This document shows positions 1 to 38,573 of a DNA stretch of 38,573 nt, in pieces (within the stretch, counting starts at the first letter, position 1; every line of letters begins with the position of its first letter). The stretch lies in the IMG/VR virus record IMGVR_UViG_2706794695_000013; one strand, written 5' to 3'. The stretch is from a virus (taxonomy: Duplodnaviria; Heunggongvirae; Uroviricota; Caudoviricetes). The notes below the pieces were generated by a model. That model was not told the origin of the DNA. It searched no databases and saw nothing but the letters and a program-made list of their open reading frames with translations. Made by a program: the position numbers and the translations under genes.

Positions 1-2918
1 TTTAATGCCGTCCTGTTCCTGAGACAATACGGCCCGACCACTGGCAGGTTTGCCCTTAATCGTCCAGCCACGCATATCAGGGATCACACCTGACGGATAA
101 ACGGCTGCAAGTTTCGGGTAAGCAGATTTGTCAAAAGTCTGTCCCTGCATCAGGGCATAACCAGACGGAACGGTATCTGATGGCCACGGGATTGGTGCAC
201 CGACTGGGTAGCTTTCTGGTGGAAGATTTTTCGAGGTATAAACTTCTGCCCAGTCTTCCTCAAAACCATAACCGTCTCTTGAAGAACGGTAGAACAGACC
301 ACCATTTCTGTAATGCGCCTTCATCTGCAAGGTCCGGCAACTTCCGACTCCGGTATAGAAGTTAACCAGAATATAGCTGTTGCCAGAGCGGGTGACATTG
401 TAAGCGCCTGATTCGGCATTCCATGGAACGCCACCATCCGCATCGGCATATGTATCCGTTGCCCTTCTGGCAAAAGCAGCCACATGCGCGGCGGTTAAAG
501 TAATATCTTTGGAACCATCAAACTCAACACCAGAAACCAGTCTTGGCGTTTGCAGCTTTGTTGCTGTCAATGCGTTACCGTTCAGACTTGCAGACAGTTT
601 GGTTCCAATAACCAGTTCGCCGGTTGCGTTATCAATAACAAACGGTCTTAATGTATTCCAGCCACCATAAACATCACCTTGATTGGTAAGCAGCAGGTAA
701 GTTTTAGCGCCATCATTACGCCATAATGCACCATACTCCCCACCTATCATTCGAATCTGATTACCACCACGCGCTACAATTTCGTCTGTGGCAAAAAGTT
801 TTTTGCACGACAAGTTATCGTTAACGATTAACGAATGAGACTCATAAAAACCACGCCCACTCTTAAAATCAAGGATAACGTCCGCCGCGATACATTCAGT
901 CGCCGGATTTGTTGCCCCAAACTTATAGGTCGTATCATTAACAACGAGATCAGCACCAGGTGCGGATATTGACAGGCCATCTTCGAGAAACGCAAAAACA
1001 GGGAAAGCAGCGCCATCAACATAGAACACAGAGCGCAAATCATCGCCCTTATTACTCATCATTATTGAGTGGATGGCTCGTTCATTGTTTTGATATTGCC
1101 AGAACATTCCATAAGCATAACGCCCCCTGTCAGTCCAGCCACCAGGCATAACAAATCCGTTAAACTCGCAGTTATTCATCGGATCGCCTGCGATTCGCGT
1201 TGCCGTGGTGATAATGACCCTTGATGCCAGTTCGCTTACTGAGCCAGCAGAACGCATAACAACAACAGGGTAATATTTTCCAGATGTTGCACCTGCAGGA
1301 GCGTTAACCCGCACATAACGCATACCACGCTTATCAGCAAAGTCTGTTTTACTGACCGCGTTAATGTTGTTCAGGAAGCGTCCCTTATCGGGTATATCAG
1401 CGCCGTTCTGGTCTTTCTGCAGACGTTTCTCAGCATTGTCATTGNNNNNNNNNNNNNNNNNNNNNNNNNNNNNNNNNNNNNNNNNNNNNNNNNNNNNNNN
1501 NNNNNNNNNNNNNNNNNNNNNNNNNNNNNNNNNNNNNNNNNNNNNNNNNNNNNNNNNNNNNNNNNNNNNNNNNNNNNNNNNNNNNNNNNNNNNNNNNNNN
1601 NNNNNNNNNNNNNNNNNNNNNNNNNNNNNNNNNNNNNNNNNNNNNNNNNNNNNNNNNNNNNNNNNNNNNNNNNNNNNNNNNNNNNNNNNNNNNNCTTCGC
1701 TGCGGACGCTTGTCTGGTCGCCTCATCTTTTGAAGCAGACGCCGATGATGCCGATGACGCCGCCGAACTGGCGGACGATGCGGCAGCCGTTTTTGAGGAT
1801 TCTGCGCTGGTCTCCGACGCTTTCGCGTTCGTCTCCGATGTCTTCGCTGCGGAAGCAGACCTCGCTGCTGCACTGGCCTGTTCAGTGGCTTCGCCAGCCT
1901 TCGTTGTGGCTGTTGAAGCGGACGATGCGGCGCTTTCTGCCGATTTTCCGGCGGCGCTAGCACTGGCTGAGGCCTGCCCGGCACTTGTTGACGCTGCACT
2001 GGCAGACGACGCAGCCGCTGTTTTTGAGCCTGCTGCTGCGGAGGCACTCTGTGCTGCTGCCGTTTCAGAGGACTTAGCGTTTGTCTCAGACGTCTTTGCC
2101 GCCTTCGCGGAATTTCCTGCCGCCGTTGCCGAGGAAGCGGCATTACTGGCGCTCGAAGCTGCGCTCGTTTCTGATAATTTTGCCGCCTCTTTTGAAGCCG
2201 ACGCATCTCTGGCTGAGGTGGCTGCTTCTGACGCTTTCGTGGTCGCGGTGGATGCAGAAGTGGCAGCTGATTGTTGTGACGCTGCCGCATTCGTTTCTGA
2301 CGTTTTCGCCGCACCGGCACTGGTGGCCGCCGCGCTTTTTGAGGACTCTGCAGCGGCAGCACTTTTTGATGCTTCAGTGGCCTTTGCTGATGCCGTTCCT
2401 GCGCTGGAAGACGCAGACTGAGCCGACGAAGCGGCCTGTCCGGCTGACGTGCTGGCTGCTCGTGCTGAGCCTGCAGCATCAGTCGCACGGGTTGCCGCCT
2501 CACGGGCTGATGTGCTGGCATCGCTGGCTGATTTCTTCGCGGCTGCCGTGTTCTGTGCCACCGCGGACGCGTTACGCGCCACCTCTTCCACCATCAGTTC
2601 AAAGCGGCGCAGTGCCTCAGGACGGGCATCATCCTCCGTCATGGCACCGAGAAAATCATTCAGCGTACCGGGTCGGGAATCTTCATACACGGTGATGGTC
2701 CCGGCATGTGACGGCGGGAATCCTTCCACCAACAGAATAACGCTGTACTGACCGTACTCAACGTCCATGCTGTAACGCCCGGCTTCATCCGGATTTTCTG
2801 AGGCCAGCGTGTTCACCACCACCGTGGTGCTGTTACGTTTTGCTTTCAGCTGGATTGTGCAGTTCTGTACCGGTTTTCCTGTGCCGTCTTTCAGTACACC
2901 TGAAATCTTTACTGCCAT
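1..2918 (-). CDS. stf: Side tail fiber protein, lambda Stf-like; partial (C-terminus beyond window start), interrupted by N gap 1445-1694
   Basis: N-terminus [26 protein letters not shown] matches lambda Stf; ATG at 2918 (track ORF starts at GTG 2924); my manual translation of minus strand 1-1444 is open throughout and ends ...[44 protein letters not shown], a tail-fiber motif. Confidence 0.85.
1445..1694. other. Assembly gap (250 N) inside stf
   Basis: Run of N in the sequence; reading frame is not preserved across it. Confidence 0.95.
1695..2600 (-). repeat. Ala/Ser/Thr-rich low-complexity repeat region within stf
   Basis: Translation is dominated by reiterated short motifs ([18 protein letters not shown]); DNA is GC-rich and repetitive, which produces long spurious ORFs in other frames. 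Confidence 0.6.
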
Positions 2919-2982: not shown

Positions 2983-3582
2983 TCAGAATTTATAACCGAC
3001 ACCCACGATGAAACCGTCAGTGCGCCAGTCGCCACTGCCGGAGCCTTCATAAGCAATATCAATGGCCACGGATTCGGTCGGGTTAAACTGCACGCCAGCT
3101 CCCCACGCCAGAGACGTGTTGCTGTGGCGACCGTCATCACTTCCGGTCAGCACATCGTGCGTTTTCCCCTTGTTGTCAGTTACGCGAAGATAATCCCCGG
3201 AGAAAGTCGACACACGGCTGTAAGCCACACCCGCCATCGCATACGCGCTGAACCATTCATTCACGCGCACAGACGGCCCCGCCATTACGCTGAACCAGCG
3301 GTTACGAACGGAATCTTCATGCCAGCGGGTATCGCTGTAACGGGTCAGCTGGCGATTCTTGTCTCCTGCATAGCTGAATGACGTCACCAGCCCCAGTGTG
3401 TCCGTAAACTCATAACGGTATTTCACGTTAATCCCGTTCAGATCATCACTGCCGGGGACGTTCGTCGAGGCATGAAGATACCCCGCGCTCAGCGTGGACT
3501 GATGTTCAGACGCCCATGCAGGCGCACCGGATACGGCCAGACAAATGGCTGCGGACAAAATTGCTGCACAAACTTTACGCAT
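2983..3582 (-). CDS. lom: Outer membrane protein Lom (Ail/Lom family), lysogenic-conversion gene
   Basis: 199 aa; MRKVCAAILSAAICLAVSGAPAWASEHQSTLSAGYLHA... closely matches lambda Lom, including the signal peptide. Confidence 0.9.
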   Translation of the reverse strand: MRKVCAAILSAAICLAVSGAPAWASEHQSTLSAGYLHASTNVPGSDDLNGINVKYRYEFTDTLGLVTSFSYAGDKNRQLTRYSDTRWHEDSVRNRWFSVMAGPSVRVNEWFSAYAMAGVAYSRVSTFSGDYLRVTDNKGKTHDVLTGSDDGRHSNTSLAWGAGVQFNPTESVAIDIAYEGSGSGDWRTDGFIVGVGYKF

Positions 3583-3652: not shown

Positions 3653-6600
3653 TCAACGAATACTGATGCCGGAAGCGGCTTTTTTGGTCACAATCACCGT
3701 ACAGTCGGTGATATTGCCTGCCCCCTGATTGCCTTTCTGGAAAATCTTAAACTCCAGAGTGACGCTTCCCCTGCCACTCGGCATATCAATAACTGCACTG
3801 TAACTACCGGGAATGGCCCCTTTAGTTTCTCTGGATGCGATTAATACGCCGTTTTTGCGAACTTCAAAACCATAACCCGTGTATCGCGTGCCTCCTGGGT
3901 TATTTCCGCTCCCCGGATCGTCATACGCTATACCGTTAAAAATAATGGGCGGAATAATAATCTGGCGGTCAAAGTTATGATCATCGCTGATGGTGACTGT
4001 AACCGTACCGTTTGGTGTTTCCGTGTTACCCCACGTACCGACTTTTTTCGGGAAGGCTTTTGATACAGCTTTAACGAAATCCCCTCTGACCTGGGTCGCC
4101 TCCAGCATGCCCTTAATCGTACAGTTCTGGTTAATCGTGACATTGTTGAGCGTCCCTGAATTTGCATTCACATTACCGCTGATATCCGCATTTTTAGCGG
4201 TCAGCTTTCCGTCTGGTGTCAGGGAAAATGCCGGCGGATTTCCACCGCTGGTAATGGTGGGAGCCGTCAGGCGTTTCAGGAACACGTCATTCATGAATAT
4301 CTGGTTGCCCTGCGCCACAAACATCGGCGTTTCATTCCCGTTTGCCGGGTCAATAAACGCGATACGGTTAGCGGCAACCAGAAACTGGCTCAGTTTGCCT
4401 TCCTCCGTGTCCTCCATGCTGAGGCCAATACCCGCGACATAATGTTTGCCGTCTTTGGTCTGCTCAATTTTGACGCCCCACATGGCATTCCACTTATCGT
4501 TGGCGTCCTTCCACTCTTTCGAAAACTCCTCCAGTCTGCTGGCGTTATCCTCCGTCAGGTCGACTTTTTCCAGCAGCTCCTGGCCGAGATGGGATTCGGT
4601 TATCTGGCCTTTGAAAAAATCCAGGTAACCTTCCGCATCATCGCTCGCCCGACCGACAGCCTCCACGAATGCTGATTTGCCGACGGTGTTCACACTGCGG
4701 ATATAAAAGTAATAATCATGGCCCGGCTTAATATTGATACTGGCGGCTATCCAGTACAGCCCCGTGCCAAGGTAGCGGGCTGTGGTTTCAACCTGCCTGA
4801 TATCCGCAATCCGTTTTTCCGAGAACCAGAACTCAAACTGTACCGTCGGGTCATAAACCGCAAGATGCGGCGTGGCGGTTATCTGAAAATAGCCCGGCGT
4901 CAGCTCAATCCGCGACGGCGCTGCCGGTGCGGCAATCCGGAACGATACCGACGCCGGATCGCCCTGCTGCCCCCACGCATTTACTGCCCGGACTGTCAGC
5001 CTGTAGTTCCCCAGAGCCAGTTGTGTGAAGCGGTAAGTGGTTTCCGTCGTCCGGGCCGTGCTGACCAGCCGCTCACGGCCGTCATCCGCTGCCACGGTCA
5101 GGCGAAGCAGGAAGCTCACGCCCTTCACCACCTTCGGCGTGTCCCAGCGGGCCAGCACCTGGTATTCCCCGCTGTCTGCGGTGACTTCTGCGGTCAGGTG
5201 CTGCACCGCTGGCGGCGTGACACCATTTACCGTGCCGCTCTGGTCGCCGTCAAAGTGCGCCCCGTTATCCACGATGGCCTCTTTTTCCGGTACATGCTGC
5301 ACGGCAGTGATGGCATACGTGCCGTCGTCGTTCTCACGGATACTCACGCAGCGGAACAGGCGCTGGCGCAGCGTCGGCAGCTTCAGCCCCCATACGCTGT
5401 ATTCAGCAACGCCGTCAGGAACACGGCTCACTTTCACCTTCACGCCGTCGGTGACGGACTGAACCTCCACGCTGACCGGACTCCCCTGCCCGTCAACCAG
5501 GCTTATCAGCGTGGTGCCGGAAGATGGCAGCGTGATTTCACGGTCGAGCGTCAGCGTCCGGGTCTGGCTGTTTACCGCCAGCACGCGCCCGCCGGTGCGG
5601 ATACCGGCATAGTCATCATCGCAGATTTCAATGACATCGCCCGGTACATGGCGAAGCCCTTCGGCACCCACGCTGAAGTCCACGGTCTGCGTTTCCAGCA
5701 GTTCTGTTTTAATCAGCCACAGCCCGGCGCGGTGTGCCTGCCCCCGGCTGGTACAGCCAAAAGCATCCATCTTCGTGACGTTACGACCGTAACGGGCAAT
5801 GGCCTGCGTGTCCTCCACAAGCTCTGTCGCCGTCTCCCAGCCGTTATTCGGGTCAATCCAGTTCACCTCAACGGCATTATGGCGGTCTTTCAGGGCGCTG
5901 AAGCTGTAGCGGAACGGCGCACCATCATCCGGCATCACCACATTACTGCGGTTATAGGTCCACACCTTATCCGACGGTCGGTCCTGCACGAACGTCAGCG
6001 TCTGCCCGTTCCATACCGGCATACAGCGCATCGCCGAGCAGAAATCACTGAGCACATCCCACGCCTTGCGCTGTGTGGTCAGGTACGCATTACAGGTGAT
6101 GCGCGGCTCCGTGCCGCCAAAACCGTCCGGCACCGACTGATCGCAATGCTGGCCGATGACATACAGCGCCCATTTGTCCACATCCGCCGCACCAAGACGT
6201 TTCCCCATGCCGTAGCGCGGATGGGTCAGCATATCCCACAGACACCAGGCCATGTTGTTGCTGTATGCTGGCTTAAACGTTCCGTCCCAGATACCGCTGT
6301 ATTGCCGCGTCTGCGGGTTATAGCTCGACGGCACCTGCAGAATGCGCCCGCGCAGATGATAATTACGGCTCACCTGCTGGCTGCCGAACTGCTCCGAATC
6401 CACCTGCACGCCGACCAGTGCCGTGTTCGGGTAGCACTGTTTCACATCGATGATTTCGGTGTATGACGACCAGAGCGTTTTGTTCTGCAGCTGGTCTGTG
6501 GTGCTGTCCGGCGTCATCCTGCGCATCCGTATATTGAACGGGCGCGGCGGCAGGTTACCCACCACCACCGAGGCCAGATACTGCGAGGTGGTTTTGCCCT

Positions 6601-28805: not shown

Positions 28806-29195
28806 TCAGGCGGCTGCACCCGCCGGTTTCTCATACTTACTGATAGTGATCTCGACCTTCCCTTTCTGGATAACCGGTCCCCACTCCACCAGCATTCTTT
28901 TCACCTGGCTGTCGTCTTCCCACACCCCCGCGTGGGTCAGGGCGTCAAACAGCGCCTTGTTATAGTTGTCCAGATCGCGGATCCGGTTATCCGGAGGAAA
29001 CAACACGATCTCCACTGAAGCAGGTGCCGACGTTGGTTTTGGCAGACGACGTAACTGCTCAACTATTGCTGCGCACGCCGCGCTCTGAAATTTTCGCCCC
29101 GCCGCGCTTATCAGGCTCTTACCAGCAAATGCCCCTTTGTTGGGGTGTCGCCAGTACGTGTTCACGCTGGGCGGGAAAGGCAGGATCAGCTTCAT
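28806..29195 (-). CDS. rusA: Holliday junction resolvase RusA
   Basis: 129 aa; ...PPSVNTYWRH...DLDNYNKALFDALTHAGVWEDDSQV... matches the RusA family. Confidence 0.85.
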   Translation of the reverse strand: MKLILPFPPSVNTYWRHPNKGAFAGKSLISAAGRKFQSAACAAIVEQLRRLPKPTSAPASVEIVLFPPDNRIRDLDNYNKALFDALTHAGVWEDDSQVKRMLVEWGPVIQKGKVEITISKYEKPAGAAA

Positions 29196-29518
29196 ACTTT
29201 CAGGCCTCTCTCATGTAACCAGTGGGTTGCACGCAGCCTGGCGTTTTCCTCACCGGCAAGCAGTGAGCGGATAATCCCGACCGCCTCGCTGTCGTCGTCC
29301 TTCACCGCGGTATGAAGAGTGATACCCCGGGCCATGCCACGCTTTATCGTGATGACGCCTTTTTTCTCCAGTGCGCGAAGATGTTCCACCGCTGCATTCA
29401 CTGAACGGTATCCCAGCATGGTTGCCACCTCCTGATTGGTTGGCGGGAAGCCACGTTCTTTCTGGTAAGAAATCAGCATATCCAGCACCTGCTGCTGGCA
29501 TTGAGTTAACGTCGTCAT
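29192..29518 (-). CDS. LexA-type winged-helix DNA-binding protein (DNA-binding domain only)
   Basis: 108 aa; LTQCQQQVLDMLISYQKERGFPPTNQEVATMLGYRSVNAAVEHLRALEKKGVI resembles the LexA N-terminal domain. Confidence 0.55.
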   Translation of the reverse strand: MTTLTQCQQQVLDMLISYQKERGFPPTNQEVATMLGYRSVNAAVEHLRALEKKGVITIKRGMARGITLHTAVKDDDSEAVGIIRSLLAGEENARLRATHWLHERGLKV

Positions 29519-30168: not shown

Positions 30169-30662
30169 TAAGCCCCCACGTAATTCCCTGACAGATACCA
30201 CTCTTCACCCGATGCAGCGCGCTTGCTGCTTTTCCGTAAGCACCGCTCACGACGCGCCAGAAAATTGTTTCGTTCTGGCTGGGAGTGGCTTTCACGGAAT
30301 GCCGCCATCCACACCGTTGCAGCACGACGGTATAAGCCCCTGGACTCCAGTTCTTCCGCCTGGCGGGTCAGGCACAAAATCACCCGGGGATCGTTAGTGC
30401 CGACATAGAAATTGCGCACAGGTCTGGTTTCACGAACTGGTTGTGGTTCCGGCTCCTGCGCTCTCTCAGTCAGGCGTGGGAAATGTCTGCGTGTATCTCC
30501 TTCATAACGGTGAGCCACACGCCCACTCTGACGTAACTTGCTTGCTGACTGCAGAACGCGCTGCCGTGAGTAACCTGCAAAAGCATCCGCAATGTCTCCG
30601 GAAGTACACCCCGGATGGGCTTCAATGAATTTCTGAACTTCATTCAAAAGACTCATGATCAC
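30168..30662 (-). CDS. PerC-family (Pch-like) transcriptional regulator with N-terminal extension
   Basis: C-terminal ELESRGLYRRAATVWMAAF fits the PerC signature L-E-x2-G-L-W/Y-R-R-A-A-x2-W; track start is GTG, ATG at about 30656. Confidence 0.5.
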   Translation of the reverse strand: MIMSLLNEVQKFIEAHPGCTSGDIADAFAGYSRQRVLQSASKLRQSGRVAHRYEGDTRRHFPRLTERAQEPEPQPVRETRPVRNFYVGTNDPRVILCLTRQAEELESRGLYRRAATVWMAAFRESHSQPERNNFLARRERCLRKSSKRAASGEEWYLSGNYVGA

Positions 30663-31477
30663 CCCCTGAATCCTGCCGGGATCTGGCTGTAGTCCACGTT
30701 GTCGTAACTGGCTTTGAAGTACGGGTCCTCGCGTCTGGCTGCAGATACCGCAGGAACTTCCCAGAATTCTTCGAAATGACGATCCGGACCAAAGAACGTG
30801 ACAGCCTGTTTCACAAATTGTGTGCCGCTGTTACCCATCGCAGATACCCATCCCGCGTAGCGTTTCACACCTTCCAGCATGGTTTCGGGGTTTACTCCCT
30901 CATTCAAACGGGCTTTCCAGGCTTTGAAGGCTGCAGATTTTGAATTGCCACCAGCACGTTTGGGATATGCCAGCCATGCCTGCTCAAACTCCGGAGAGTA
31001 TTCCGGTCGGTTTGAACGAACTCGCACGGACTCATCAACTGATGCACCAACAGCTATTGGTTCATTGACTGGTTCTTTGACTGGTTCAAAAGAGTGACTG
31101 GTTCTGGGTGAATCTCCTGCACTACCCCCTGGTGCAACTCCTGCACTACCTGGTGAATTTGCTGCACCAGATAGTGAATTATTTGCACTACCCCCTAGTG
31201 AATCTCCTGCACCATCCAGATGAAGGAGATAGATATTACTTGAGTTACCTTTTTCACCTTTCCGGGTGACTTTTTTTACCAGCCCGGACTCACAAAGGGC
31301 CGCAATATGATTCATCACAGAACGTTTGCTAATTTCGCACTGGTCAGCAATATGCTGGTAGCTGGGCCAGCACTCACCCTGATCGCTGGCATTATCAGCC
31401 AGCTTGATCAGAACCAGTTTTCGCAATGGATTACCCACTCGAATTTTCATCGCTTTAACCATCAGCTCCATACTCAT
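30659..31477 (-). CDS. Replication initiator, lambda O-like (HTH N-terminus, iterons inside the gene)
   Basis: 272 aa; central repetitive Gly/Ser/Ala linker is encoded by the iteron array, as in lambda O. Confidence 0.7.
   Translation of the reverse strand: MSMELMVKAMKIRVGNPLRKLVLIKLADNASDQGECWPSYQHIADQCEISKRSVMNHIAALCESGLVKKVTRKGEKGNSSNIYLLHLDGAGDSLGGSANNSLSGAANSPGSAGVAPGGSAGDSPRTSHSFEPVKEPVNEPIAVGASVDESVRVRSNRPEYSPEFEQAWLAYPKRAGGNSKSAAFKAWKARLNEGVNPETMLEGVKRYAGWVSAMGNSGTQFVKQAVTFFGPDRHFEEFWEVPAVSAARREDPYFKASYDNVDYSQIPAGFRG
31107..31217. repeat. Iteron array (candidate origin), about five imperfect ~22-bp direct repeats
   Basis: ggtgaatctcctgcactaccccct / ggtgcaactcctgcactacct / ggtgaatttgctgcaccagata / gtgaattatttgcactaccccct / agtgaatctcctgcaccatcc, followed by an AT-richer stretch. 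Confidence 0.6.
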
Positions 31478-31710
31478 GCTGCACCTCCGAGATGCTTCAT
31501 GTTTTTTCCGGAGCGAAAGGCTATAAGCGGCATACTGACGCGGTAATTACGGCCCAGCGGTTCACAAATCACCTTCTGGCATTCACGGTCAACCAGGCTA
31601 ACACGTAGAACATGCCCTGCAGGCGTGGTGTACCACTGCCCAACTGTAGGAATTGATATTTTTTTACGCTGAAGCAAACGGCAAATATTGAGGATCAACG
31701 GATTAAGCAT
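31474..31710 (-). CDS. Hypothetical protein, 78 aa
   Basis: GGAGG SD 8 nt upstream of the ATG; overlaps both neighbours by a few nt (coupled translation). Confidence 0.45.
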   Translation of the reverse strand: MLNPLILNICRLLQRKKISIPTVGQWYTTPAGHVLRVSLVDRECQKVICEPLGRNYRVSMPLIAFRSGKNMKHLGGAA

Positions 31711-32539
31711 GACGATGCCCTCCGCTGATATTCAGGAGACGGTGAATATGAAAATTAGCCTTATCCGCCAGACGAATACGTTCAGCTTGCAAGTTAAGAA
31801 GGGTTTCTACCAGAACCTGATGTGCCTGCGGATCCGAAAGAGTTACCTTGCGCAGAGCACGTAGTGCAGTTGTTACATAACTGAGTTTATGTAAGTCTTC
31901 ATCATTCAGACGAGTGAGGGCTGGGACAGTAGCCATGATGGCAGCCTCCTTGATCGGTGAAATACTTCCACCACCGGAAACGCCAATTTCGCTGGTGGTG
32001 AACTGAACGGGGTTGGCGTAACCGGTGATCAAGGAAACCGGCGCATCTTTCGATGCCCCCGCCCAGCCCACCATAACTTTGATGTGAGCAAATGCGGACG
32101 ATAAAAAAGACGCTGGCGCGTCATATATCGCCTTGATCAATTCCAGGACGCCAATCCCGGCACCCGCTTTATAAGGTGCCTGAACAGTGTAACGTCCCGG
32201 AATGGCAGAATCAATGTGCTGGTGGTCCTTCACACTCAACAAAATCACGCCTGAATTTCCACAAAGGACTAAAGCACTCATGCGGGTAGTCTTTGCGAAG
32301 ATAGATAACGCGCTGTGTTTCTGGCTCCCAACGAATAACATGAACATAAAGTCCTCTTCCGTCACGAAACCAGCGGTTAAGTTCCTGCACAACTCGCCCC
32401 CCACAGTCAGGTAAAGTTCTCTGTGGTTACTTACAGCCAGGTGATTTGGTAATCTGCATTCATGCCGTAACAACAGGTGTTCAGCGACGCTGACCACCAG
32501 CTGTTGCGACAAACGGTTATTTGCCGTTAAACTGTTCAT
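31703..32539 (-). CDS. Hypothetical protein, 278 aa
   Basis: GGAG SD upstream of the ATG; ATGA-type overlap with the upstream gene; no Walker motif or recognisable family. Confidence 0.5.
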   Translation of the reverse strand: MNSLTANNRLSQQLVVSVAEHLLLRHECRLPNHLAVSNHRELYLTVGGELCRNLTAGFVTEEDFMFMLFVGSQKHSALSIFAKTTRMSALVLCGNSGVILLSVKDHQHIDSAIPGRYTVQAPYKAGAGIGVLELIKAIYDAPASFLSSAFAHIKVMVGWAGASKDAPVSLITGYANPVQFTTSEIGVSGGGSISPIKEAAIMATVPALTRLNDEDLHKLSYVTTALRALRKVTLSDPQAHQVLVETLLNLQAERIRLADKANFHIHRLLNISGGHRHA

Positions 32540-33099
32540 GCGTTAGTTTCTCCACAGACACAAAACGCCACGACGCCCGGAGCTGCACACTCGCGGGCGT
32601 CACTCTTTTCTGGAGCGCAAAAGATTTTGTAGACCAGTGCTGCATGCTCCTGGAGCTTCGAAATTGACAGATACAACTCATCATTAATTGCTGTCTGCTC
32701 GTGTGGCTCCACTACCCCATCTTCGATTGCCGAACGAATCTGCTTTGAGTAACTCCCGATCTGTTCGATGACTTCCAGCAGGCGCTGGTTTATATCGGCG
32801 TTCTCTACTTCCTCAATTTCAGGAAGCGATACAAACACCCCACCAGCAGACTGTGCGACAGCATCCGCAATGTAGTGAGTGCCAGCCGCGCGCTGTAAAA
32901 TCATTGCCCATCCCAGCGGGAAAATCTGATCGCCATCTGCACGAAGGCGGTTGAATAAAGCGTTCTCTGTTACATCCAGCCACTCAGCAGCTTCAGCGTA
33001 ACCCCCCGGCAACGCCGCGATAGTTTTTCTGACAGCTTTCACGTACCACTCAGGCTGTTTTTCTACTTTCCAGTGATGCTTACCCACGGTTAGCCTCAT
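32536..33099 (-). CDS. Hypothetical early protein, 187 aa (possibly a CII/CP76-like regulator)
   Basis: First gene after cro in the early-right operon; acidic C-terminal half; family assignment is from memory only. Confidence 0.45.
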   Translation of the reverse strand: MRLTVGKHHWKVEKQPEWYVKAVRKTIAALPGGYAEAAEWLDVTENALFNRLRADGDQIFPLGWAMILQRAAGTHYIADAVAQSAGGVFVSLPEIEEVENADINQRLLEVIEQIGSYSKQIRSAIEDGVVEPHEQTAINDELYLSISKLQEHAALVYKIFCAPEKSDARECAAPGVVAFCVCGETNA

Positions 33100-33130: not shown

Positions 33131-33331
33131 TTAATCTTTCGGATAGATATCCGGTCTTAAGTCAGATTTCGTAATTGCACCTGACGTGCATTGCTCAAGT
33201 TTTTTAGCCAGCACAAAACTGGCTTTTTTATAACCATTGAAAACCAGCCGTAAGTAGCCTGGTGTTGAGCCAACTTTTCCGGCCAACTCACCCTGCTGTT
33301 CTTTGGTTAAAGAGTCCCAATACGCTTTCAT
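33131..33331 (-). CDS. Cro-like HTH repressor (66 aa)
   Basis: Internal ATG at 33331 with GGAGG upstream; HTH-like segment GELAGKVGSTPGYLRLVFNGYKK; divergent from the repressor gene. Confidence 0.7.
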   Translation of the reverse strand: MKAYWDSLTKEQQGELAGKVGSTPGYLRLVFNGYKKASFVLAKKLEQCTSGAITKSDLRPDIYPKD

Positions 33332-33334
33332 ACA

Positions 33335-33421: not shown

Positions 33422-34096
33422 ATGAAAACAGTCCATGACATCCGGCGGTCTAACGCCAGAAAACTGAGAGATGGTGTTGGCGGGAATTCTTCCTTTGCCA
33501 CCATGATTGATCGCGAGCCAACCCAGACCAGCAGGTTTATGGGAGATGGTGCAACTAAAAATATCGGTGACAGCATGGCACGGCACATCGAAAAATGTTT
33601 CGACCTGCCTGTCGGATGGCTTGATCAAGAACACCAGACAACGAACATCACAAAAAAACCTGACGTTTCAATCACTAACAAACAAATAACGTTAGTCCCT
33701 GTCATATCATGGGTACAGGCCGGAGCATGGAAAGAAGTTGGCTATTCTGAGGTTGATTTGAGCACAGCAGAAACTTATCCCTGCCCTGTACCCTGTGGCG
33801 AAATGACTTATATCTTGCGGGTGATTGGTGATTCAATGATTGATGAGTACCGCCCGGGAGACATGATTTTTGTTGATCCTGAAGTCCCTGCCTGCCACGG
33901 TGACGACGTTATTGCATTGATGCACGATACAGGCGAAACCACCTTCAAGCGGTTGATAGAAGATGGAACACAGCGTTATCTCAAAGCATTAAACCCAAAC
34001 TGGCCTGAGCCTTACATTAAGATTAACGGTAATTGCTCTATAATTGGTACAGTGATTTTCTCAGGAAAACCAAGAAGATACATAATAAAGGCCTAA
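33422..34096 (+). CDS. CI-type repressor with C-terminal S24 (LexA-like) autopeptidase domain
   Basis: 224 aa; catalytic Ser in VIGDSM and Lys in TFKRL; N-terminal DNA-binding region; divergent from cro. Confidence 0.85.
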   Translation: MKTVHDIRRSNARKLRDGVGGNSSFATMIDREPTQTSRFMGDGATKNIGDSMARHIEKCFDLPVGWLDQEHQTTNITKKPDVSITNKQITLVPVISWVQAGAWKEVGYSEVDLSTAETYPCPVPCGEMTYILRVIGDSMIDEYRPGDMIFVDPEVPACHGDDVIALMHDTGETTFKRLIEDGTQRYLKALNPNWPEPYIKINGNCSIIGTVIFSGKPRRYIIKA

Positions 34097-37584: not shown

Positions 37585-38004
37585 TTACTCATCATCAATA
37601 GATGATACGCAATATTTATTTTTAAATTTAAGGTTCTTTGGCGTAACTTCATCAGATATATCAAAACCGTCCAGAATTCTATTGAATGTAGCTTCTGGCA
37701 TATCATCATGAACGGAAATCTCACCCGATCGCTGCTTTCTAACCATGTTATCCACTCGCCAAATTATAGCTTCAGCGTAAACAACATAACTTGGATGCTT
37801 GATAAAGCGATGATCACCAGAATTCAAGACGCAAGACGGATCGTGGGGGACACCATCCTTGATACTAGAAATATTAACAACTAAAACACAATAACAATCG
37901 TTAACGGGGTAATAAACAGGATCATTACAAATCACATGAAGATGATTGCATGGCCCAGTTGGGGCAAGCACAGTTCCTTTCCTGTATGGCTGATAATCCG
38001 TCAT
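37585..38004 (-). CDS. Hypothetical protein, 139 aa, translationally coupled to the Panacea-like gene (candidate toxin)
   Basis: ATGA overlap with the upstream stop at 38001-38004; Cys/His-containing MTDYQPYRKGTVLAPTGPCNHLHVICNDP...; no recognisable family. Confidence 0.55.
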   Translation of the reverse strand: MTDYQPYRKGTVLAPTGPCNHLHVICNDPVYYPVNDCYCVLVVNISSIKDGVPHDPSCVLNSGDHRFIKHPSYVVYAEAIIWRVDNMVRKQRSGEISVHDDMPEATFNRILDGFDISDEVTPKNLKFKNKYCVSSIDDE

Positions 38005-38573
38005 GATAATTGCAAAGAAAATTCCTTAAGTTTCTGAGATTCTTCCATTTTGCCAATTATACGATTAGCCTCATCCTCGCTTTTACCCTCACTGATCAGC
38101 ATTTCTTTCAGGTCTATAGGCTTACGAGAATTGCCAGGATTGTGCCACTCTGGACAAACGCTTTCTAAATGCGTCATGTTTGCGAGATCAAATCGGTTCA
38201 TATGCCCATACAGAGAATAGATTTCATCTAAAATCCGGATATCTGCACGGCTCAACTCATCAAAGACCTCGTCTGCATCCATTTCCCTCGGATCTGAACG
38301 CAACAACACATCATGCCCGTTCGTCTCTATCAGGTTGTACCAGTAGTCACCAATACCTTCAGCCTTACCACGAATCAAGTTCAGCGTATTCGACATGACT
38401 GGACCAAATTTCATAGAGTAAAGGCTATCTTCGCCGATCATCCTGCCATGCTTCAAAATCGACTTGCGGTTAGACAGATAGAGCAGCTTCATCAATTTCA
38501 GATATGCCATGCGCCCACCTCGCTTAAGAAGTAGGTATGCAGCCATTTGAGCTACTTTTTCTTCGCAAAACAT
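38001..38573 (-). CDS. Panacea-domain (DUF4065, SocA/GepA-like) protein, candidate antitoxin; N-terminus may extend beyond the window
   Basis: VAQMAAYLLLKRGGRMAYLKLMKLLYLSNRK...SMKFGPVMSNTLNLI fits the Panacea pattern (T-x-LKL-x-KLLY ... F-x-A-x2-GPV); ORF begins at the last base of the window. Confidence 0.6.
   Translation of the reverse strand: MFCEEKVAQMAAYLLLKRGGRMAYLKLMKLLYLSNRKSILKHGRMIGEDSLYSMKFGPVMSNTLNLIRGKAEGIGDYWYNLIETNGHDVLLRSDPREMDADEVFDELSRADIRILDEIYSLYGHMNRFDLANMTHLESVCPEWHNPGNSRKPIDLKEMLISEGKSEDEANRIIGKMEESQKLKEFSLQLS

Follow-up and report, generated by a model that had tools for sequence, protein, structure and literature searches.

A likely RNA-based immunity layer of the P1 c4 and Gifsy-1 IsrK type upstream of the replication genes of an SfV-type lambdoid prophage

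In P1 and P7, the a′b′ part of the c4 antisense RNA is complementary to two sequences, a1b1 and a2b2, and the target lies over the ribosome-binding site (RBS) of icd. The immI operon of these phages, containing the c4 antisense RNA, icd, and ant1/2, was reportedly analyzed by Citron and Schuster in 1990 and 1992. The c4 RNA of P1 represses the synthesis of Ant, and icd belongs to the same operon (PMC8546580; PMC8201110). In the isrK-orf45(STnc1160)-anrP operon of Gifsy-1, a promoter located directly upstream of isrK drives the operon, and the nucleotide sequence of orf45 is conserved but its amino acid sequence is not; the authors noted a resemblance of IsrK to SeqA of P4 and a possible CI-like action of STnc1160 (Hershko-Shalev et al., 2016; PMC4825925). 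Here we analyze a locus of the same kind in viral DNA of 38,573 nucleotides (IMG/VR record IMGVR_UViG_2706794695_000013), referred to below, at its full length, as the window. It is likely that its 1.9-kb interval between cro and the replication genes, read on the minus strand, consists of ymfL, a DUF4222 gene, an RNA switch of the P1 c4/P4 CI/Gifsy-1 IsrK type, a 77-aa cargo gene, a 78-aa gene, and the replication initiator gene, and that the switch constitutes an RNA-based immunity layer. An earlier note on this DNA had placed three translationally coupled genes of unknown function in the interval; of its open reading frames (ORFs), the largest instead covers the DUF4222 gene, the promoter-like site, isrK, C4, and the 77-aa ORF. 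Taken together, the observation made in that note was partly confirmed and its interpretation partly supported.

The switch is built from three parts: a site resembling a promoter, an RNA of the IsrK type with an intrinsic terminator at its end, and a structured RNA of the C4 type. They lie, together with their targets and the cargo ORF, as follows (GA, gathering threshold; PGAP, Prokaryotic Genome Annotation Pipeline):

31703..32539, minus strand: 278-aa open frame (SfV orf37, ‘immunity region’), annotated by PGAP as DUF4222 plus ‘ash family protein’
32186..32214, minus strand: candidate isrK promoter, TTGATT, 17 nt, TACACT, read from the sequence
32103..32179, minus strand: isrK-type RNA (Rfam RF01394, 64.2 bits, GA 50) with two hairpins, linker, and terminator
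32154..32148 and 32139..32131, minus strand: upstream target in isrK, a1 UUGGCGU in hairpin 2 and b1 UGAUCAAGG in the linker, respectively
31991..32078, minus strand: C4 antisense RNA of the P1 c4 type (Rfam RF01695, 82.3 bits, GA 45; model positions 1-87, full-length)
32037..32026, minus strand: variable recognition loop b′ of C4 (hairpin 2), UUUCCUUGAUCA
32019..32013, minus strand: unpaired junction a′ of C4, ACGCCAA
31945..31986, minus strand: downstream two-part target, a2 UUGGCGU at 31986..31980 and b2 GAUCAAGGA at 31955..31947
31703..31936, minus strand: 77-aa orphan ORF (MATVPALTRLNDEDL...), the cargo of the cassette and the C-terminal third of the 278-aa ORF

The TTGATT-17-TACACT site ends 6 nt before the 5′ end of isrK, its -35 element overlaps the stop codon of the DUF4222 gene, and the surrounding zone (32210..32180) is invariant in eight homologues and nearly so in two diverged loci (L010 and L011). 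The intrinsic terminator of isrK, found by a terminator scan at 32122..32103, consists of a hairpin and a T6 run. The fold of C4 is supported by comparative data, as RNAalifold with 16 C4 sequences gave 27 pairs, 13 of them with compensatory changes. Rfam searches of 16 further cassette loci showed isrK immediately upstream of C4 in every one, and the same pair is carried by P4-like islands (L004-L006), while e14 gave neither isrK nor C4. In a Yersinia aldovae locus, the Rfam family RF03163 c4-a1b1 (‘a1, b1 targets of C4 antisense RNA’) matches at the position of isrK, which links the IsrK and a1b1 families; the isrK-type RNA is the equivalent of the a1b1 element.

The C4 loop and junction are complementary to both two-part targets, and this complementarity co-varies across 12 specificity types. 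In the window, b′ matches b2 over 9 nt and b1 over 9 nt, and a′ (ACGCCAA) matches UUGGCGU at both sites. The b2 sequence overlaps the Shine–Dalgarno (SD) sequence AAGGAGG (31951..31945) of the 77-aa ORF, which lies 8 nt before its ATG at 31936. Among close homologues there are four specificity types, in which the loop, the downstream site, and the upstream site change together (for the C4 loop, type 1 is UCCUUGAUC and type 2 is UCCGAUAAC). A wider sample was obtained by a pattern scan of viral contigs, giving 65 distinct cassettes with a 12-nt loop and 12 loop types. Within this sample, the cognate match at the downstream site is 7-10 nt (mean 9.1), compared with 4.6 nt for non-cognate pairs, and for the upstream b1 the means are 8.2 nt and 4.1 nt, respectively; the downstream site stands at a constant distance, over a GGAG(G) located 7-9 nt before ATGGCT. 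The junction and a2 also co-vary, with ACGCCAA/UUGGCGU here, GUAGCAA/UUGCUAC in phage phi191, and ACGCUAA/UUAGCGU in the Yersinia element. In the minimum free energy fold of the read-through RNA, b′/a′ pair with b2/a2 in cis and the SD is buried (z = -4.8).

By analogy with P1, P4, and Gifsy-1, the following mechanism can be proposed. In a lysogen, the cassette’s own promoter would give rise to IsrK and a read-through RNA. C4, acting in cis or processed and acting in trans, would pair with a2/b2 and block initiation at the 77-aa ORF, and, because the 77-aa, 78-aa, and replication genes overlap (by 8 and 4 nt), this block would lower the expression of the 78-aa gene and of the replication initiator too. 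IsrK could titrate C4 and open the switch, because it carries a decoy copy of the target. The outcome would be a second layer of immunity, RNA-based and type-specific, placed before the replication module of a prophage whose primary immunity is the CI/Cro protein switch.

The locus shares with Gifsy-1 the succession of promoter, IsrK with a Rho-independent terminator, structured RNA, and cargo, and in both cases the structured RNA begins with a conserved AUG (32074 in the window) about 106 nt from the 5′ end of IsrK. The expression of the cargo depends on RNA pairing in Gifsy-1 and, judging from the complementarity, may do so here, and close relatives of the window carry an AnrP-like, Rha-type antirepressor in the cargo slot. 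The differences are that the cargo in the window is a 77-aa orphan and not an antirepressor, that the cassette is located in the early-right operon, between the cII-like gene and the replication genes, with a DUF4222 gene abutting the promoter, and that orf45 stops before anrP, whereas here the frame continues into the cargo gene. Moreover, the published Gifsy-1 model emphasises pairing between the IsrK hairpin and the 3′ end of orf45, while here it is the loop and the SD that would pair. The similarity to P1/P7 c4 concerns membership of the Rfam C4 family, the match of a′/b′ to an upstream a1b1 and a downstream a2b2, the position of the downstream target over the RBS of the next small gene, and specificity types that differ by a co-varying loop and target, as P1 does from P7; Icd-like genes accompany the same RNA at other Escherichia coli loci. 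However, the window represents a lambdoid rather than a plasmid prophage, it contains neither icd nor ant, and the a1b1 element occurs in the IsrK form with its own terminator. In P4, the leader-derived CI RNA pairs with sites on both sides of itself (seqA/seqB/seqC; PMC4825925), an arrangement to which the complementarity in the window would correspond. The replication genes are silenced in the P4 lysogen, and the cassette described here is directly upstream of the replication module. P4 relies on premature termination of transcription, whereas in the window the downstream target overlaps the SD, which points to translational control; P4 also differs in that primary immunity here is provided by proteins.

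Two side observations concern related loci. The Yersinia aldovae contig (L007) has two C4 copies, at 453..537 and 2379..2584. In phi191 (L012), an Rfam sRNA-Xcc1 hit (RF02221, 79.6 bits) lies downstream of the isrK-C4 cassette at 3023..3106, where it separates a Rha-family gene from the ‘anti-repressor’ gene that follows, and looks like a second RNA element of the same operon.

The 278-aa ORF is a composite and not one gene; its annotation is an artefact or, at most, describes a translated frame without constraint. In the PGAP/RefSeq annotation it is already divided in two, an ‘ash family protein’ and, in another frame, a DUF4222 domain-containing protein. Its 5′ part divides into two zones:

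32391..32535, minus strand: leader of 145 nt, from the ymfL stop to the DUF4222 start (codons 2-49 of the 278-aa ORF)
32211..32390, minus strand: DUF4222 gene of 59 aa with a GTG start, in a frame different from that of the 278-aa ORF

The DUF4222 gene matches Pfam PF13973 (E = 9.5e-14, 51.1 bits, cut-off 27) and phrog_1343 (E = 1e-36). This zone was compared with three diverged homologues, from Salmonella phage 118970_sal3, an Stx1 phage, and K-12 e14. The synonymous/non-synonymous codon changes are 12/5, 21/8, and 21/18 in the DUF4222 frame, with differences mostly at third codon positions, and 0/16, 3/27, and 2/38 in the 278-aa frame over the same zone (the last value of each series is that for e14). 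A test restricted to distinct point differences gave 18/19 (P = 1e-4) and 7/30, respectively. The frame under purifying selection at 32390..32211 is that of DUF4222, not the 278-aa frame. In the leader, no synonymous excess was found in any frame (7/11, P = 0.11, for the 278-aa frame; 7/14 against the Salmonella phage), and the leader has no Pfam or PHROG match; the idea that it is a structured RNA or a small gene was rejected, given a fold z-score of -1.6 and the lack of a coding signal.

The remaining part of the long frame concerns the Ash domain. The match of the 278-aa ORF to Pfam PF10554 Phage_ASH is strong (67.8 bits, cut-off 26; aa 117-210, i.e., nt 32191..31910), and the matched DNA coincides with the Rfam isrK and C4 hits on the same strand. 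Although the score is reached, the changes in this zone are compensatory changes of the RNA type, and synonymous bias is absent: within specificity types the Ash frame shows 6 synonymous and 14 non-synonymous changes (P = 0.39). Eight homologues that are otherwise 95-99% identical differ at 101 of 243 positions from the 5′ end of isrK to the next SD, and across them no codon periodicity was detected in any frame. A scan of genome contigs with the ‘Ash’ protein returned only five loci, all of them P4-like islands, which indicates that only the RNA part is conserved. The Pfam ‘Ash’ domain and the ‘YmfM-like’ N-terminal part are translations of the isrK/C4 RNAs and of the out-of-frame DUF4222 gene, and the Phage_ASH ‘family’ is, in this locus, the translation of RNA genes or, at most, a translated unconstrained frame. 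A literature search gave nothing relevant on the Ash family, c4-a1b1, or SfV orf37. As a separate observation, in the Kluyvera P4-like island (L006) a DUF4222 gene (1504..1677; Pfam 84 bits) lies about 0.8 kb upstream of an isrK-C4-Icd cassette, showing that the association of DUF4222 with the cassette is not limited to lambdoid prophages.

Several points weigh against the RNA switch as proposed above. Over the 81 codons before the ATG, the ‘Ash’ frame is free of stops in 63 of 66 distinct cassettes. A stricter consensus promoter scan listed no isrK promoter, the site given above being a match made by eye. Only the gene overlaps suggest that expression of the replication gene is coupled to that of the 77-aa ORF. 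Regulation of translation, as in P1, of termination, as in P4 and N15, and a cis switch, as in Gifsy-1, would look alike at the level of sequence, and the 77-aa and 78-aa products could not be assigned a function. In addition, the cassette region is probably not purely non-coding, because the ‘Ash’ frame is kept open and orf45 of Gifsy-1 is translated.

The open frame is also the starting point for the rival explanations. Counted by cluster, it is open in 9 of 11, with one 1-nt indel and one false positive as exceptions; the other two frames contain 1.6 and 2.6 stops, and in shuffles the probability of zero stops is 0.06 per sequence. In three versions of DUF4222 the +1 frame is free of stops, whereas 2.1 would be expected from synonymous shuffles (P about 0.04 for each), and in nearly all cassettes (66 instances, loci L001-L138) the 278-aa frame is in frame with the cargo start. 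The 278-aa frame is kept open, yet upstream of 31936 it shows no constraint at the protein level, which makes a translated ‘conduit’ a live alternative to a purely non-coding reading. It assumes that the RNAs are real and that the long frame is translated as well, indifferently to its sequence: ribosomes on the PR transcript, coupled from ymfL, would melt the isrK terminator and the C4 fold during lytic growth, expression would thereby reach the 77-aa, 78-aa, and replication genes, and transcripts from the isrK promoter, which start inside the frame, would stay silent. This is consistent with a frame open beyond chance in which amino acid constraint is missing, with its agreement with the 77-aa start, with a long ORF whose start, in each of four distinct upstream contexts, lies at or beside the stop codon of the gene before it, and with Gifsy-1, where orf45 in the C4 region is translated and needed for anrP by coupling (PMC4825925). 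However, the clusters that enter the openness statistic have common ancestry (91 of 293 columns are conserved), the P of 0.04 per DUF4222 version is modest, and the start at the previous stop is partly circular, because annotators choose the longest ORF. Two frames would have to be translated across the DUF4222 gene. We regard a conduit of this kind as unlikely.

The model implied by the earlier note, in which three ordinary coupled protein genes follow each other and the 278-aa product is a multi-domain ‘YmfM-Ash’ regulator or antirepressor, could likewise refer to the open frame, here with all of its 278 codons and its openness across DUF4222, and also to the ATGA overlap with ymfL, the GGAG upstream, the Phage_ASH score, and the annotation of a single CDS in SfV, Ayreon, and mEp460, including Ash-Rha fusions. 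It is very improbable in light of the mostly non-synonymous changes counted above in both the DUF4222 and the Ash zones. Over DUF4222 it is the other frame that encodes a bona fide Pfam family under purifying selection, the Ash zone is accounted for by two RNA families whose pairs show compensatory changes, the ORF contains a promoter-like site and an intrinsic terminator that looks functional, and the phi191 record leaves the same DNA intergenic. Another explanation is decay: a Rha-type antirepressor would have been deleted in the SfV-type lineage, leaving a meaningless 77-aa ORF and an RNA that is a non-functional relic. The homology with mEp460 indeed stops 24 nt into the 77-aa ORF and returns inside the 78-aa ORF, and the orphan 77-aa product has, over most of its length, only relatives that are at least 94% identical. 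Nevertheless, the 77-aa frame has an excess of synonymous changes (13/8, P = 3e-4), the complementarity is perfectly kept in four specificity types, all with the 77-aa cargo, and among 5426 complete E. coli genomes 439 contain the arrangement at no less than 80% coverage, while it also occurs in active phages, namely SfV, Ayreon, 2H10, and Stx2c phages. A decayed remnant is hardly credible.

The likely assignment of an RNA switch and a separate DUF4222 gene to the window also bears on the e14 element of K-12. In e14 (L003), an unannotated 59-aa DUF4222 ORF (5002..5181; Pfam 67 bits) is nested out of frame in ymfM (4823..5161); it has a TTG start 8 nt after AAGGAG, and its stop overlaps the ATG of oweE. 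The annotated YmfM frame matches no Pfam family. Codons 1-98 of the 278-aa ORF are similar to YmfM (BLASTP, 32% identity, E = 7e-8) over the overlap with DUF4222, and it is the ymfM frame that shows the 2/38 given above for e14, against 21/18 for DUF4222; in e14, too, purifying selection acts on the DUF4222 frame and not on that of ymfM. The e14 locus resembles the window in its ymfL, 88% identical, and in the nested DUF4222 ORF, but it is devoid of the RNA cassette and of the 77-aa and 78-aa genes. YmfM was named a cell-division inhibitor (SfiC) on the basis of a clone of the whole annotated ORF, and the searchable text of that preprint reports no frame-specific controls (Ansari et al., bioRxiv 10.1101/2020.11.19.390815). 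In the pBAD-ymfM clone, a perfect AAGGAG SD precedes the DUF4222 codons, 53 out of 59 of which are present; this calls into question whether the phenotype was rightly assigned to the ymfM frame, and the SfiC phenotype may belong to DUF4222. A joint proposal is made here with considerable doubt that both of its parts hold, namely that the ‘Ash’ frame is kept open as a translation-driven bypass, by which lytic PR transcripts ignore an RNA device that transcripts from its own promoter obey, and that DUF4222 is the real SfiC.

As for the cargo, its slot is variable. In the 65 distinct cassettes, it is occupied by Rha-type antirepressors (20), Icd-like proteins of 62-65 aa (24), or the 77-aa type (21), and the cargo at the targeted SD always starts with MAT(V/I/T). 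In mEp460 and similar Rha-type loci, homology to the window ends and restarts at the two points named above. A homologue search for the 77-aa ORF added, to its close relatives, one weak partial match. The AlphaFold2 (AF2) model of the product is a helical hairpin (pLDDT 84); there was no Pfam match, a PDB sequence search was empty, and Foldseek returned only generic helical hairpins (E ≥ 0.46). The 77-aa product was also considered as Icd-like or Rha-like, and this was rejected, the hhalign alignment covering the first six residues only, i.e., the shared target region; similarity to Ant was absent as well.

The cassette and its cargo are enclosed by three genes:

32536..33087, minus strand: ymfL, 183 aa, GTG start, regulator of the CP76 type (phage 186 CII)
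31474..31710, minus strand: 78-aa ORF (SfV orf38; phrog_1153, E = 5e-42), with overlaps of 8 nt (77-aa ORF) and 4 nt (replication gene)
30659..31477, minus strand: replication initiator (Pfam HTH_36, E = 1.8e-11, and DnaD_N; phrog_270 ‘replication initiation protein’, E = 2e-88), the last gene of the overlap chain

The 78-aa ORF is a real, narrowly distributed small protein gene tied to the replication module. It shows 19 synonymous and 18 non-synonymous changes in its own frame (P = 3e-4), and it lies immediately upstream of the replication gene at every locus found, of the 77-aa type and the Rha type alike. The protein consists of a variable N-terminus of 22 residues and a conserved core, modeled by AF2 as a helix and a small β-barrel (pLDDT 81). 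Its family is tiny, with 29 hits, none informative, in an exhaustive profile search of 1.84 billion representatives; no Pfam match was obtained, a PDB sequence search was empty, and Foldseek against BFVD found at best (E = 1e-3) uncharacterised small β-barrel phage proteins. A profile comparison with DUF4222 (hhalign P = 3e-4, probability 39%; PHROG cross-hit E = 0.008) is suggestive of a distant relationship between the two.

ORF 1, the first of the three ORFs, is a CII analogue of the CP76 type belonging to the YmfL family. It matches the NCBIfam equivalog NF041471 YmfL (169 bits, cut-off 90), Pfam PF06892 Phage_CP76 (E = 8.5e-15, 55.3 bits, cut-off 26, model positions 5-141 of 146), and phrog_101 ‘CII-like transcriptional activator’, and its homologues are labelled cII in several phage records. 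The changes in its own frame are 12/5 (synonymous/non-synonymous) among close homologues and 44/46 against the 79%-identical Salmonella phage. The gene more probably starts at GTG 33087, which has GAGG 6 nt upstream and is the PGAP start (183 aa), than at ATG 33099 (187 aa), which has no SD. Its position is immediately downstream of cro in the early-right operon, and both family and position suggest that the product is an activator; no solved structure with detectable sequence similarity to YmfL was found. The λ-CII model was tried for the products and rejected (no match at E ≤ 0.1).

The arrangement of the locus agrees with what was described before. The ORF list gives, on the minus strand, 33099..32536 (187 aa), 32539..31703 (278 aa), and 31710..31474 (78 aa), followed as the next ORF by the replication-protein gene (31477..30659, 272 aa), with successive overlaps along this chain of four of 4 nt (ATGA), 8 nt, and 4 nt. 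The three ORFs with their overlaps of 4 and 8 nt, the SD sequences of the 278-aa ORF (GGAG 10 nt upstream of the ATG) and of the 78-aa ORF (GGAGGG 7 nt upstream), and the location of an insertion between cro (a YdaS/Cro-type gene, 33334..33131, the upstream neighbour of ORF 1) and the O-like/DnaD-like replication gene had all been given correctly by the earlier note. The gene of an S24-peptidase CI repressor is divergent (33422..34096, plus strand). The suggested bearing on the lysogeny decision was right as well. The first gene is the cII analogue, of the CP76 type that the note had proposed for a profile check; the YdaT and DUF1376 profiles named beside it gave no match at E ≤ 0.1. Translational coupling stands insofar as the overlaps of the 77-aa, 78-aa, and replication genes suggest it, not as a relationship between three ordinary protein genes. 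The view that none of the three ORFs has a recognisable motif or function does not hold for ORF 1 or for ORF 2 with its Phage_ASH match; known families now account for ORF 1 and, as RNA, for the core of ORF 2, but not for the 77-aa and 78-aa products. Defence or anti-defence functions found no support, as PADLOC gave no hit at E ≤ 0.01 for five products.

Several E. coli chromosomes carry the 1.9-kb interval at 100% identity, and orf36-orf39 of the Shigella phage SfV are 99.1% identical to it; the interval was matched in 3053 of 5426 complete E. coli genomes, 526 of them with at least 80% coverage. If the proposed switch operates, SfV-, e14-, and Stx-type lambdoid prophages would possess, in the early-right operon and before the replication genes, a type-specific antisense-RNA layer in the style of P1 and P4, with at least 12 exchangeable specificities among the cassettes. 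Such a layer could shape superinfection immunity, cross-talk between prophages, and induction in polylysogens, including those with Stx phages. The switch is of a known kind, and what is new is the 77-aa cargo and the location in a lambdoid early operon. A coding sequence annotated for more than 20 years (SfV orf37, and in many E. coli and phage records ‘ash family protein’ or Ash-Rha fusion ‘antirepressors’) consists largely of translated RNAs and an out-of-frame gene; gene calls that use it are misleading, as are pangenome counts and Pfam/PHROG families derived from it. For K-12 genetics, there is now doubt over which frame encodes the division inhibitor assigned to ymfM.

Three further observations concern the rest of the window. 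A terminator-like hairpin with a T-run at 33206..33224 (plus strand), found as a consensus match only, lies antisense inside cro, upstream of cI and directed towards it. A 108-aa ORF (29192..29518, minus strand), which follows the phage dam methylase gene in the early operon and is annotated as ‘LexA repressor’ in identical genomes, has a LexA-like DNA-binding N-terminus without the S24 peptidase domain. At the prophage end near the attachment site (approximately 37585..38573, according to the annotation of the identical locus L001, 12286..13274), there are a Panacea-domain gene and a small hypothetical gene, which may form a toxin-antitoxin pair of the PanA type.

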